The notes under the pieces were generated by a model that worked only from the letters and a program-made list of their open reading frames with translations, was not told where the DNA came from and ran no database searches. A stretch of DNA of 24,000 nt from Sporichthyaceae bacterium. GTDB taxonomy: Bacteria > Actinomycetota > Actinomycetes > Sporichthyales > Sporichthyaceae. The stretch's first letter is position 1. Each line of letters opens with the position of its first letter. The stretch is taken from the NCBI GenBank assembly GCA_052387905.1, contig JBQTIR010000021.1:64727-88726 (forward strand). The letters are read 5' to 3'. A program made the translations under genes and the position numbers. Positions 2,784 through 11,196 of this stretch are shown here, one piece after another.

Positions 2784-3125
2784 TCAGGCCGGGGCGAACT
2801 CCAAGGCCGTGACCGCAAACTCCTCGCCGGCCACGATTGCCACGTCGGTCCCGCCGCAGGCCGGGCAGGCGAAGGTCAGTGGTTCGGGCAGGCCGAAGTG
2901 CTCGGCACAGCCGCGACAGGACAGCAGGGCCGGTACCCGGTCGAGGTCAAGGCGCGAGCCGTCGAGCGAGGTGTCGGCGGTGAGCATCGACCAGCAGAAG
3001 ATCAGCGTGTCCGGGACAACCTGGCGCAGTTGGCCGACCTGCAGGTGAATGACCCCGACGTGACGGTCGCCGGCCTGGCGGCTGGCGATGTCGGCGATGG
3101 CGCCACACAGGGCGAGCTCATGCAC
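2784..3125 (-). CDS. hypA: Hydrogenase nickel insertion protein HypA
   Basis: A GTG start at 3125 gives the canonical (M)HELALC N-terminus. Zn site is CRGC...CPAC. The longer 179-aa track ORF is an upstream read-through into the XRE gene. Confidence 0.9.
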   Translation of the reverse strand: MHELALCGAIADIASRQAGDRHVGVIHLQVGQLRQVVPDTLIFCWSMLTADTSLDGSRLDLDRVPALLSCRGCAEHFGLPEPLTFACPACGGTDVAIVAGEEFAVTALEFAPA

Positions 3126-3692: not shown

Positions 3693-4268
3693 TTACTGAG
3701 GGGGTGATCCCGTGGACCTGCCGAGATCGATCGATACCTCGATGCCGATTGCGTCAGAGAGGCGGAGCGCGCCGAGGAAGGCCTTGTAGGGCTTGATGCC
3801 AAAGGCTGACTGCAGAAGGGTTCCAGTGGCACGCCAGGACGAATCTCTGGAGTCGGTCACATCCAACCGCAACCGACCGGACGAGCCATGCAAGGTAAGG
3901 CTTCCCTCAATTTCTCCCGACGAGGCGTCGCCAGAAGGCACCACGCGATCGACGGTGAATATTGCGGTCGGATTCTTGTCGACATCGAGCAACTTCATCG
4001 CCGTCTTGGTGATGTCGGCCTTGTCGCCGGCGTCGAGCGGCGAGGCACCGCCTGTGCCCTCCACAATCGTGAACGAGCCCAGATCGACCTCGGCGGTGAG
4101 CTCGGCTCCCGTGGGGTCCTCGGCGGTCAGGCTCAGCTGCCCGGACCAACGGGGAAACTCGATGAGGAGGTCGTGCCCGACTTTCGCGGCGACGCCCTCC
4201 CGGGTGGTCCGCACTCGGATGTGGCCCACCTCCGGACCGAGGGTGAAGTCGCCGCTTGTGTGCGCCAT
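3693..4268 (-). CDS. YceI-family (lipocalin-like, polyisoprenoid-binding fold) protein, no signal peptide
   Basis: ATG at 4268 is preceded by GGAGATGGAGG. YceI-like blocks are LLDVDKNPTAIFTV, GSLTLHGSSGRLRLDV and FGIKPYKAFLGALRLSDAIGIEVSIDL. The N-terminus MAHTSGDFTLGPE has no hydrophobic leader. Confidence 0.75.
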   Translation of the reverse strand: MAHTSGDFTLGPEVGHIRVRTTREGVAAKVGHDLLIEFPRWSGQLSLTAEDPTGAELTAEVDLGSFTIVEGTGGASPLDAGDKADITKTAMKLLDVDKNPTAIFTVDRVVPSGDASSGEIEGSLTLHGSSGRLRLDVTDSRDSSWRATGTLLQSAFGIKPYKAFLGALRLSDAIGIEVSIDLGRSTGSPPQ

Positions 4269-4554
4269 CTGTCTACCTCCATCTCCGGTACGAGTACCCG
4301 CCGCGAGCACCGTAGTCGCTGGCGACGGTAGAGGCGTGGGTCCAGGAATCCGGAATTCGGTGATTCCGGGATGCCCGTAGGCATTCGGGAGATCCGGTTT
4401 TCCCGGACTCCGGAAATGCACCCAGGACCCCTATTTAATAAGGGAGATCACCCCCTTGTGGTAATGGAATTCCGGAGTATGGTCGGCGGGGATTCGACCA
4501 TTTCACTCAGGCAACGGGTGCGTTGGGCGCCCGACGTCCAGGAGGTGCGCTGCG
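4269..4554. promoter_or_regulatory. Divergent control region between the yceI-xre-hypAB unit and the hhyS operon
   Basis: 286 bp non-coding. It holds a 7-bp inverted repeat CCGGAAT-N6-ATTCCGG (4350-4369) and a 9-bp inverted repeat ACTCCGGAA (4407-4415) / TTCCGGAGT (4470-4478). GGGAGATC occurs at 4387 and 4442. The AT-rich TATTTAATAA (4432-4441) is a possible -10 element. RBS GGAGG is at 4541-4545. Confidence 0.45.
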
Positions 4555-5604
4555 GTGACCACGGCGACAGACGAGGGTGTTGTCCACATTCTCTGGATGA
4601 ACGGGGGCTTGGGTTGTGACGGAGATTCAGTTGCGCTGACCGCAGCCACCCAGCCCAGCATCGAGGAGATCGTGCTGGGGGCCCTGCCGGGCCTGCCGAA
4701 GATCGCGGTGCACTGGCCGCTGATCGACTTCGAATGCGGCCCGGAGACCGGCGCGGACAACTTCATCGAGTGGTGGCACAAGGCCGACCGCGGTGAACTC
4801 GAACCGTTCGTTCTCGTGGTGGAGGGCTCGATCCCCAACGAGGAGTTGAACGCCGGCAACGGTGGGTATTTCTGCGGCTTCGGCAACGACCCCGCGACGA
4901 ACCAGCCGCGCACCACCAACGAGTGGCTGGACCGGCTCTCCGCCAAGGCGACCGCGATCATCGCCGTGGGCACCTGCGCCACCTACGGCGGCATCCACGG
5001 GATGGCCGGCAACCCGACCGGCGCCATGGGCGTGCCCGACTACCTTGGCTGGGACTGGAAGTCCAAGGCCGGGCTGCCCATCGTGTGCGTGCCGGGCTGC
5101 CCGATCCACCCGGACAACCTCTCCGAGACCATCACCTACCTGCTCTACCAGGTCGCCGGCCAGGCCCCGATGATCCCGCTGGACACCGAGCTGCGCCCGA
5201 AGTGGCTGTTCGAGTCCACCGTGCACGAGGGTTGCGATCGCGGCGGGTACTACGAGCAGGGCCAGTTCGCCACCGAGTACGGCTCCCCGCTGTGCCTGGT
5301 CAAGCTCGGCTGCTGGGGCCCGGTGGTCAACTGCAACGTCCCCAAACGCGGCTGGATCAACGGCATCGGTGGTTGCCCGAACGTCGGCGGCATCTGCATC
5401 GGCTGCACCATGCCGGGCTTCCCGGACAAGTTCATGCCGTTCATGGACGAACCCCCCGGCAGCAAGGTGTCGGCCACCGCAAGCTCGGCTTACGGCGTGG
5501 TGATCCGAACCATGCGCAAGTTCACGATGAACACCCTGAACAAAGAACCCTCCTGGCGTGAGCGCGGACCCATGCTCAAGACCGGCTATACGAAGGTGAA
5601 GTGA
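4555..5604 (+). CDS. hhyS: [NiFe]-hydrogenase small subunit, group 1h/5 type (no Tat signal)
   Basis: GTG start lies 9 nt after GGAGG. N-terminus is VHILWMNGGLGCDGDSV with no RRxF twin-arginine leader. Fe-S ligand blocks are GTCATYGG, VPGCPIHPD and CLVKLGCWGP..NCN..GGCPN.GGICIGCTMPGFPD. Confidence 0.93.
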   Translation: MTTATDEGVVHILWMNGGLGCDGDSVALTAATQPSIEEIVLGALPGLPKIAVHWPLIDFECGPETGADNFIEWWHKADRGELEPFVLVVEGSIPNEELNAGNGGYFCGFGNDPATNQPRTTNEWLDRLSAKATAIIAVGTCATYGGIHGMAGNPTGAMGVPDYLGWDWKSKAGLPIVCVPGCPIHPDNLSETITYLLYQVAGQAPMIPLDTELRPKWLFESTVHEGCDRGGYYEQGQFATEYGSPLCLVKLGCWGPVVNCNVPKRGWINGIGGCPNVGGICIGCTMPGFPDKFMPFMDEPPGSKVSATASSAYGVVIRTMRKFTMNTLNKEPSWRERGPMLKTGYTKVK

Positions 5605-5611
5605 CTCGGCG

Positions 5612-7414
5612 ATGACCACCACCTCGACGAAGTACCTGTCCACGAAGGGCGCCGACGAGTCCCACCTGACCGAGATGGCCTGGGACCCGATCACTCGCAT
5701 CGTCGGCAGCCTGGGGATCTACACGAAGATCGACTTCAAGCAGAAGGTCGTCGCGGAGTGCTACAGCACGTCCTCGATATTCCGCGGGTACAGCATCTTC
5801 ATGAAGGGCAAGGACCCGCGCGACGCGCACTTCATTACCAGCCGGATCTGCGGGATCTGCGGGGACAACCACGCCACATGTTCGGTCTACAACCAGAACA
5901 TGGCATACGGCGTGCATCCGCCGGCGCTCGGTGAATGGCTGATCAACCTCGGTGAGGCCGCCGAGTACATGTTTGACCACAACATCTTCCAGGAGAACCT
6001 GGTCGGGGTCGACTACTGCGAAAAGATGGTCCGCGAGACCAACCCCGGCGTCCTGGAACTGGCCAACCGCACCGAGGCCCCGCACGCCGGCGAACACGGG
6101 TACAAGTTCATCGGCGACATCATGCGCGCGCTCAACCCGCTCGAGGGCGAGTTCTACCGCGAGGCGCTGGCCGTCTCCCGCTACACCCGGGAGATGTTCT
6201 GCCTGATGGAGGGTCGGCACGTCCACCCGTCCACGCTGTACCCGGGCGGCATCGGGACCACCCCGACCATCCAGCTGATGACGGACTACATGACGCGGCT
6301 GATGCGTTACGTCGAGTTCATGAAGCGGGTCGTCCCGTTGCACGACGACCTCTTCGACTTCTTCTACGAAGCCCTGCCCGGGTACGAGAACGTTGGGCTG
6401 CGCCGCACCCAGCTGGTCTGCTGGGGTGCGCTGAACGACCCGCGTCACTGCGACTTCAGGTACGAGAACATGACCAACTGGGGCCGCAAGGCCTTCGTCA
6501 GCCCCGGGGTCGTCGTCGACGGCAAGCTGGTCACCAACGATCTCGTCGAGATCAACCTCGGCATCCGCATCCTGCTCGGCTCCTCTTTCTACAAGAGCTG
6601 GGAAGACCAGCCGATGTTCGTCACCAAGGACGCACTCGGCAACACCGTCGACCGCAATCACCCGTGGAACCAGACCACGCTGCCCGACCCGCAGAAGCGC
6701 GACTTCGACGACAAGTACAGCTGGGTGATGTCCCCGCGCTGGTTCGACGGCAAGGACCACCTCGCCTGCGACACCGGCGGTGGGCCGCTCGCCCGGCTGT
6801 GGGCCACGGCGCTCGGCGGGCTGGTCGACTGCGGGTACGTCAAGGCGACCGGGACTTCCGTCGTGATCAACCTGCCCAAGACGATGCTCAAGCCCGGGGT
6901 GACCTTCGAGTGGAAGGTCCCGAAGTGGAGCAACACCCTCGAACGCAACCGTGCCCGCACCTACTTCCAGGCCTACGCCGCGGCCTGCGCGCTGTACTTC
7001 TGCGAGCAGGCACTCGAAGAGATCCGCGCCGGCAACACCAAGACGTGGAACTCCTTCGAGGTGCCGGACGAGGCGTTCAGCTGCGGGTTCACCGAGGCCG
7101 TGCGCGGGGTGCTCAGCCACCACATGGTCATCAAGGGCGGCAAGATCGCGAACTACCACCCCTACCCGCCGACGCCGTGGAACGCCAGCGTGCGTGATGT
7201 CTATGGCACGCCGGGACCTTACGAGGATGCCGTGCAGAACACCCCGATTTTCGAGGAGAACCCCCCCGACAACTTCAAGGGCATCGACATCATGCGAGCG
7301 GTGCGCAGCTTCGACCCGTGCCTGCCGTGTGGCGTGCACATGTACCTCGGCCCAGGTAAGACGATCCAGACCATCCACAACCCGGCGATGATGCCCACGA
7401 CGCTGGCGACCTGA
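5612..7414 (+). CDS. hhyL: [NiFe]-hydrogenase large subunit, group 1h/5 type
   Basis: 600 aa. N-terminal active-site motif is TSRICGICGDNHA. C-terminal motif SFDPCLPCGVHM is followed by a 23-aa extension that would be removed by the endopeptidase. Confidence 0.97.
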   Translation: MTTTSTKYLSTKGADESHLTEMAWDPITRIVGSLGIYTKIDFKQKVVAECYSTSSIFRGYSIFMKGKDPRDAHFITSRICGICGDNHATCSVYNQNMAYGVHPPALGEWLINLGEAAEYMFDHNIFQENLVGVDYCEKMVRETNPGVLELANRTEAPHAGEHGYKFIGDIMRALNPLEGEFYREALAVSRYTREMFCLMEGRHVHPSTLYPGGIGTTPTIQLMTDYMTRLMRYVEFMKRVVPLHDDLFDFFYEALPGYENVGLRRTQLVCWGALNDPRHCDFRYENMTNWGRKAFVSPGVVVDGKLVTNDLVEINLGIRILLGSSFYKSWEDQPMFVTKDALGNTVDRNHPWNQTTLPDPQKRDFDDKYSWVMSPRWFDGKDHLACDTGGGPLARLWATALGGLVDCGYVKATGTSVVINLPKTMLKPGVTFEWKVPKWSNTLERNRARTYFQAYAAACALYFCEQALEEIRAGNTKTWNSFEVPDEAFSCGFTEAVRGVLSHHMVIKGGKIANYHPYPPTPWNASVRDVYGTPGPYEDAVQNTPIFEENPPDNFKGIDIMRAVRSFDPCLPCGVHMYLGPGKTIQTIHNPAMMPTTLAT

Positions 7415-7416
7415 CG

Positions 7417-7932
7417 ATGGGCGCTCCCAAGCTCGACGTGGGCGAGCGGGTCGAGGCCCTGCTCGCGCAGCTGCGCCGCCAGGGTGGTGACCCGGCGGCC
7501 GACAGCGGCGAGGAACTCGTCCGGGAGCTGCTCGCCTACTACGGCGCCGGGTTGGAGCGCATCACCGAGATCGTCGCGGCCGGTGCCCCCGAACTGTTGG
7601 CGGCACTGGCCGCGGACCCCCTGGTGGAAAGCCAGCTGCTGCTGCACGGGGTGCACCCGCTGGGTGTGGAGGAGCGGATCACCGCCGCGCTCGACGCGCT
7701 CGTACCGCCGGCAGGTGACGCTGTCTATCTCGGCATCGACGTCGACGGCGTCGCACACCTACGCCTGCCCGGCACCGGCAAGGGCTGCTCGACCGGTGCC
7801 GCGAAGGCGGTCCTCGCCGAGACGCTGCTGGCCGCGGCTCCGGAACTCACCGACGTGGAGGTGGCGACCGAGGAAACGGCCAAACCGCTGATCCAGATCG
7901 GCAGGCGTCCCGGCCTGGTGGCAGTGAGATGA
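7417..7932 (+). CDS. NifU/Nfu C-terminal-domain-like protein of the hydrogenase cluster (single Cys)
   Basis: Starts 2 nt after the hhyL stop. The C-terminal half VEERITAALDALVPP.GDAVYLGIDVDGVAHLRLPGTGKGCSTGAAKAVLAETLL follows the Nfu-domain pattern, but CxxC is reduced to a single Cys. Confidence 0.6.
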   Translation: MGAPKLDVGERVEALLAQLRRQGGDPAADSGEELVRELLAYYGAGLERITEIVAAGAPELLAALAADPLVESQLLLHGVHPLGVEERITAALDALVPPAGDAVYLGIDVDGVAHLRLPGTGKGCSTGAAKAVLAETLLAAAPELTDVEVATEETAKPLIQIGRRPGLVAVR

Positions 7933-11095: not shown

Positions 11096-11196
11096 TCGTG
11101 AGGTTCGTCAAGGCGGCAATGCTCGCGGCAACCGTCGCCGCGGTCCTGCAATCGCTGCCCGACATCAAGCGCTACCTGGACATGCGAGCAATGTGA
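11092..11196 (+). CDS. 34-aa hydrophobic micro-protein (MIVRFVKAAMLAATVAAVLQSLPDIKRYLDMRAM), not in the supplied ORF track
   Basis: ATG overlaps the protease stop (ATGA at 11092-11095), continuing the chain of coupled genes. By hand count, about 28 of 33 codons end in G or C. The following 74 nt have low GC3 in the frame read. It has one hydrophobic helix plus a basic tail. Confidence 0.55.
   Translation: MIVRFVKAAMLAATVAAVLQSLPDIKRYLDMRAM

Follow-up and report, generated by a model that had tools for sequence, protein, structure and literature searches.

Does a YceI-family barrel protein encoded beside a group 1h [NiFe]-hydrogenase connect that enzyme to the respiratory chain? Group 1h hydrogenases (Hhy) consume atmospheric H2 in soils, and both their electron route to menaquinone and their regulation are unresolved in the papers that we found (10.1101/769216, PMC6883350). 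The enzyme of M. smegmatis is membrane-associated, has no transmembrane segments and feeds menaquinone by a route left unresolved (10.1101/769216), and HhyE is one candidate for this step (PMC6883350). Our literature search returned no paper connecting YceI proteins with group 1h hydrogenases and no paper reporting a structure of Hhy. The DNA analysed here (24,000 nucleotides in all, hereafter the window) carries a YceI-family gene next to hhyS, and a conserved barrel of the quinone-binding type beside the enzyme genes provides a concrete gene with which that step could be tested. A preliminary description of this DNA had gone further, and suggested that a soluble isoprenoid or quinone carrier beside hhyS might be the missing link to the respiratory chain.

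The window holds a complete group 1h locus. On the plus strand, hhyS (4555-5604) encodes the small subunit, with Pfam matches to NiFe_hyd_SSU_C and Oxidored_q6 and 74-95% identity to hhyS across the class, and it is followed by hhyL for the large subunit (5612-7414; Pfam NiFeSe_Hases, 9.8e-61). The ORF directly after hhyL (7417-7932) matched no Pfam family and is termed HhyE-like by its position only; beyond it lie genes for DUF5947, DUF6084, a 438-amino-acid ORF, the maturation protease and a DUF6893 microprotein, then hypF, hypC, hypD and hypE. The microprotein (11098-11196, plus strand; 32 amino acids; PF21833, 39.6 bits, above the cut-off), which lies between the maturation protease and hypF and does not belong to the YceI unit, has a hydrophobic N-terminal half.

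The YceI gene (3693-4268, minus strand) is separated from hhyS by a divergent intergenic region of 286 bp (4269-4554), and the divergent arrangement of the two genes given in the preliminary description is thereby borne out. The order on the minus strand is YceI, an XRE-like helix-turn-helix regulator termed P0003 (3118-3618), hypA (2784-3125; Pfam HypA, 2.5e-25; the product starts VHELALC) and hypB (1969-2745; Pfam cobW/HypB/UreG, 3e-18), the last two encoding the nickel insertion protein and the nickel insertion GTPase. P0003 begins 74 bp after the YceI stop codon and its own stop codon overlaps the start of hypA. Its match to HTH_3 is weak (E 0.088), and a relative at the Nonomuraea locus L061 (59% match) gives 2.5e-6 with the same family. 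No terminator-like site was found between 2600 and 4700, no sigma-70-like promoter consensus was found around the YceI gene and the 286-bp region, and the predicted RNA fold of that region was no better than that of shuffled sequence. The proposal that the YceI gene heads the hypAB transcription unit is therefore plausible, with the XRE-like ORF as a further putative member of that unit.

The product of the YceI gene, P0001, has 191 amino acids and was assigned to a distinct actinobacterial subfamily of YceI proteins from Pfam, from an AF2 model searched with Foldseek and from an alignment of homologues. PF04264 (YceI) matched it at 54.5 bits (E 2.2e-14), above the curated cut-off of 23.7, and a profile search of the whole genome with PF04264 returned it at 54.2 bits. 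There are 168 homologues of near-identical length in which, among the matches listed, YceI is the sole domain. The AF2 model had a pLDDT of 84.5 and a pTM of 0.79, and all 21 Foldseek matches in the PDB at E <= 0.001 were to YceI-family chains, with TM scores of up to 0.79; the structures listed are 7bwl, 5ixh, 5ixg, 1wub, 1y0g, 3q34, 3hpe, 2x32/2x34, 2fgs and the 5w-series of C. jejuni YceI. A profile built from 22 homologues also reached solved YceI proteins, weakly (PA0423, 1e-10; E. coli YceI, 3.5e-8; TT1927b, 5e-4). P0001 is thus predicted from its model to be an eight-stranded antiparallel barrel of the lipocalin-like YceI fold, and it can be seen in the alignment that apolar and polar residues alternate along the strands, as expected with an apolar barrel interior. 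Across the subfamily T21, R23, H32, D33, W41, D82 and D172 are invariant and Q153 is invariant or nearly so, and these polar residues could be binders of a lipid head group.

The N-terminus of P0001 reads MAHTSGDF, and a GGAGG motif lies 7 nt 5' of the ATG. We place the start at the ATG at 4268 because the N-termini of homologues align there, with a MAxxxGxxxLGP motif conserved across the subfamily. Two other calls were rejected: a longer ORF from an in-frame upstream GTG at 4421, the extension of which is not conserved and also contains no leader, and a 173-amino-acid call (P0004), since homologues align from residues 1-10. There is no hydrophobic stretch within residues 1-35. Both the YceI assignment of the preliminary description, through the Pfam match and the predicted fold, and its leaderless MAHTSGDF start, through the conserved N-termini, are confirmed, and a cytoplasmic location is predicted for the protein. 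A missing leader is not special to P0001, because the second, canonical YceI gene of the same genome (169 bits; L001 1489-2070, minus strand, equivalent to G000:C37), which sits between a pirin-like gene and a gene for a MarR-like regulator, encodes a leaderless protein as well.

We then assessed how well the arrangement is conserved. Within the Sporichthyaceae the YceI gene is close to and divergent from hhyS in 11 of the 13 family genomes that have hhyS, with a gap of 228-264 bp in the ten genomes other than that of the window, and the two family genomes that lack a 1h hhyS also lack a gene of the YceI subfamily. A separate observation concerns the Sporichthyaceae-family genome G005, where hhyS (G005:C1:261244-262279) is called as two overlapping pieces in different frames, maybe through a frameshift, and a YceI-like gene is found on another contig. 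Taking GTDB with one genome per species, P0001 has at least 515 relatives, and we read the neighbourhoods of the closest 80. In 51 of these hhyS (80-93% identical) lies divergently upstream of the YceI gene, and in 39 of the 51 hycI and hyp genes follow downstream on the YceI strand. A further 8 of the 80 have only hyp genes in view (3 of the 8 with almost no upstream flank), and in the remaining 21 no gene of a hydrogenase lies within 10 kb. The hhyS-linked set spans Sporichthyaceae (Sporichthya), Treboniaceae (Trebonia), Streptosporangiaceae including Nonomuraea, and Actinospica. The sole co-directional case is in G083, a genome of another family, with YceI, hhyS and hhyL in that order on one strand.

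On a quick maximum-likelihood protein tree the linked state required 9 changes, compared with 28 when labels were shuffled, and linked subclades alternate with unlinked clades from Micromonosporaceae, Streptomyces and Jatrophihabitantaceae. Such a pattern could reflect an ancient linkage that was lost several times, or one that was gained repeatedly. We conclude that linkage of the YceI gene to group 1h loci is, within this clade, far beyond chance. Where the cluster is split, the YceI gene remains with maturation genes: in three Planotetraspora loci (L029, L056 and L057) it comes after hypF, in the same orientation, and hhyL is on another contig, and in L020 it stays with hypA and hypB. It is the maturation and regulator arm, and not the structural operon, that the YceI gene accompanies. 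One record in the set, titled as a Candidatus Melainabacteria MAG (L066), contains an actinobacterial-type run of hhyS, XRE, YceI, XRE and hyp genes, with an hhyS 82% identical to that of the window; either the bin label is wrong, as it looks, or the cluster was transferred.

Regulators of the XRE type accompany the YceI gene in two different arrangements. In some 50 linked loci outside the Sporichthyaceae a protein of about 190 amino acids with a C-terminal HTH_3 domain is encoded directly upstream of YceI on the same strand, between hhyS and the YceI gene (for example, L025:9340-9915 and L040:9017-9856, both plus strand), and in these loci YceI is followed by SIS, HypC-like, SIS and HycI genes and hypCDEAB. 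This upstream XRE protein is 55-89% identical among loci, better conserved than the YceI protein, and its N-terminal domain of about 130 residues gives a weak match to HATPase_c_2. It is absent from unlinked YceI loci and is a candidate regulator of the 1h hydrogenase genes. Loci of the Sporichthyaceae, Nonomuraea and Actinospica type have a different XRE protein downstream of YceI, and this order of YceI followed by the helix-turn-helix gene is kept in 7 of the closest 80 loci and in G012.

The picture changed when group 1h loci were sampled evenly. In 401 genomes of the class, 57 had the YceI subfamily and 89 had a 1h-type hhyS; both genes were present in 25 and adjacent in 12, that is, in 12 of the 89 hhyS-positive genomes, a denominator that includes the unpublished genomes G020, G028, G037, G045, G049, G265 and G371, among which there are zero adjacencies (12 of 82 without them). 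Outside the home family, co-occurrence at the genome level was near chance, with 12 genomes observed and 8.6 expected. The co-occurrence of YceI and 1h genes thus holds as conserved adjacency within the clade but not across the class. All 14 of the YceI-less 1h loci that we sampled from other families keep the block hhyS, hhyL, HhyE-like, DUF5947, DUF6084, ORF and hycI; no gene takes the place of YceI in them, and the upstream neighbour of hhyS is hypAB or hypF. When these 14 genomes and G030 were searched for a YceI domain of any subfamily near hhyS, none was found in 14 of the 15. The exception, a genome without the P0001 subfamily, has a fragment of a canonical-type YceI domain (118 bits, covering profile positions 2-114) at about 2037-2387 of L111, minus strand (G041:C8:195697-196047), at a distance of 7.6 kb on the upstream side of hhyS. 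One of the 1h-positive genomes, which is 97% complete, lacks YceI domains altogether.

The converse also occurs. Among ten genomes with unlinked YceI copies, hhyL was found elsewhere in 5 and was absent from 5, the latter including those of the isolates Actinopolymorpha pittospori and Micromonospora sp. DT47, and two further families (f25 and f45) carry close YceI copies without the enzyme. The unlinked copies have no constant neighbours. In a comparison of linked and unlinked copies we found no residues specific to the linked proteins apart from one glycine; the two groups share the invariant residues, and the biochemical activity is therefore presumably the same in both settings. An optional barrel cannot universally link Hhy to the respiratory chain, and the suggestion of a missing link is not supported on any of these points: adjacency is confined to 12 of 89 genomes, YceI-less loci are intact, carriers without hydrogenase exist and linked copies have no residues of their own. 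The narrower idea of a carrier beside hhyS retains the barrel family and the linkage within the clade, and is possible as a lineage-specific extra but not as a general link. We conclude that P0001 is neither a core subunit nor a general group 1h route to the respiratory chain, and that its gene is a real, conserved, optional accessory from a divergent YceI subfamily. The survey thereby narrows what the YceI gene can explain to an optional helper restricted to some lineages.

What might such a helper do? Our tentative preference, which we hold with appreciably less than even confidence, is that P0001 is an optional accessory that holds an isoprenoid or menaquinone, is expressed along with the maturation arm and aids Hhy in the linked lineages. 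By analogy with its solved relatives the barrel would hold a long isoprenoid, and in this Gram-positive organism the candidate ligands would be polyprenyl lipids and menaquinone, the quinone expected of Actinomycetes. Made together with the hydrogenase maturation genes, P0001 could keep menaquinone or hand it over, or could help membrane contact, for a soluble Hhy that lacks a Tat signal. The fold, the alternating strands, the adjacency to hhyS and hyp genes conserved in several families and the precedents for quinone binding all speak for the accessory reading. It is less likely that P0001 is itself an electron-transfer partner, because its gene sits with maturation and regulator genes, a line of reasoning also applied to HhyE (PMC6883350). 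A bolder version is that a menaquinone-loaded cytoplasmic YceI protein works with the hydrogenase either as a quinone adaptor or, together with the XRE protein, as a sensor of quinone state that switches hhy and hyp genes, in Sporichthyaceae, Treboniaceae, Streptosporangiaceae-like and related lineages. We think this unlikely; if true, the adaptor or sensor would be the first YceI fold to serve a hydrogenase specifically, and to do so in the cytoplasm.

A potential explanation that would not need to invoke any physical or electron link to Hhy is that P0001 is a general cytoplasmic isoprenoid- or lipid-binding stress protein, for example one that buffers quinones or lipid radicals, and that it shares its control by starvation or persistence with the hydrogenase. 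YceI lipocalins do act in oxidative and lipid-peroxyl stress (PMC9113575), the same subfamily with its invariant residues occurs in varied unlinked contexts and in genomes without hydrogenase, and the other YceI protein of this genome is likewise leaderless and encoded beside MarR-like and pirin-like genes. A word-index search found no fused form of the P0001 subfamily longer than 335 amino acids, and in the longer representatives the only recognisable additions were TPR repeats or a superoxide dismutase C-terminal domain, with no DNA-binding or redox-cofactor domain. One metagenome representative called at 386 amino acids (P0179) joins a YceI domain of this subfamily to an Fe/Mn superoxide dismutase C-terminal domain, and is either a genuine fusion or a product of faulty gene calling; taken as called, it would also suit a stress function. 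However, adjacency to hhyS and hyp genes has been kept through at least three gene orders and at least four families, and loose co-regulation usually preserves less. We consider the stress-protein explanation doubtful. That the YceI gene is simply a passenger with no functional tie to the locus seems to us very improbable.

The constant company of XRE regulators makes regulation an equally testable role. P0001 could be the ligand-sensing partner of the neighbouring XRE protein, its barrel reporting a lipid, or the redox state of menaquinone, and so tuning the transcription of the divergent hhy and hyp units. An HTH_3 regulator adjoins the YceI gene in both main architectures, the pair is located at the divergent control region, the conserved upstream regulator of the roughly 50 linked loci does not accompany unlinked copies, and a patchy distribution fits regulation, which is typically lineage-specific. 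Nevertheless, we know of no YceI protein that acts as a co-regulator, the fusion search gave no DNA-binding domain in this subfamily, the upstream XRE protein has an N-terminal domain of its own and unlinked YceI copies have no constant regulator neighbour, and on balance we rate a sensing partnership as rather unlikely. The association with hyp genes could also mean that P0001 helps maturation or assembly of the hydrogenase under air, along with the co-oriented SIS, HypC-like, HycI and Hyp proteins. Co-orientation with hycI and hyp genes in 39 of the 51 linked loci, and the retention of YceI with hypF in Planotetraspora and with hypA and hypB in L020, are what such a role would produce. Yet most 1h loci mature their enzyme without YceI, the protein is present in genomes without hydrogenase and, to our knowledge, no maturation step requires a lipid barrel; a maturation role is accordingly very unlikely in our judgement.

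How, then, does the tentatively preferred accessory compare with known systems? The ligands of solved YceI lipocalins are octaprenyl compounds or ubiquinone-8 (PMC9113575). P0001 shares the Pfam family, the predicted barrel and the apolar interior pattern with P. aeruginosa PA0423 (7BWL), B. cenocepacia BcnA/BcnB (5IXH/5IXG), T. thermophilus TT1927b (1WUB) and E. coli YceI (1Y0G), and its model matches these with Foldseek E values of 2e-11 to 4e-10 and TM scores of 0.64-0.79. Sequence identity to solved YceI proteins is 13-23% (best profile E 1e-10), and the P0001 subfamily differs from them in its invariant polar residues and in an insert, about 11 residues long, that contains an invariant G-x-G-G..L motif. 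The solved and BcnA-type proteins are periplasmic or secreted, whereas P0001 has no export leader and is predicted to be cytoplasmic. BcnA has been proposed to cycle quinone with a membrane cytochrome b561 (PMC9113575), and BcnA-type proteins have a linked cytochrome b561; in contrast, a search of the whole genome of the window (97.9% complete) for cytochrome b561 (lcoA/yceJ, PF01292) gave no match.

The high-affinity hydrogenase Huc reaches menaquinone through HucM (PMC10017518), and the statement in the preliminary description that Huc uses a dedicated scaffold for this purpose is correct. The likeness of P0001 to HucM of the M. smegmatis group 2a enzyme is one of proposed role only, namely to bring menaquinone within reach of a high-affinity hydrogenase that is soluble and associated with the membrane. 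HucM forms an alpha-helical coiled-coil scaffold that is stoichiometric in the purified Huc oligomer, whereas P0001 is a predicted beta-barrel with no relation to it in sequence or fold, and its gene, which occurs in a minority of 1h loci, lies alongside hyp genes on the strand opposite to the structural genes. In all 51 linked loci among the closest 80 the YceI gene and hhyS diverge, which places YceI outside the structural operon, and far from being universal it is adjacent in 12 of 89 hhyS-positive genomes and absent from 14 of 14 sampled loci of other families. HhyE and HucE, putative iron-sulfur proteins, are also candidates for the step from hydrogenase to menaquinone, and their genes too accompany those of the enzyme. 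Genes of the HhyE-like kind belong to the structural operon, and the one so termed here by its position is kept both in linked loci and in 14 of 14 YceI-less loci, whereas P0001 is optional and, unlike HhyE and HucE, has no cysteine motifs.

For a respiratory quinone in a YceI fold there is precedent. The X158 YceI-like domain of S. degradans binds UQ-8 (PMC8981238), and GNA1030 of N. meningitidis is a ubiquinone-8-binding YceI protein, as cited in PMC9113575 and PMC8981238. Both proteins support the idea that a quinone held in this fold may have a part in a redox chain; both are extracytoplasmic and bind ubiquinone, whereas P0001 is predicted to reside in the cytoplasm.
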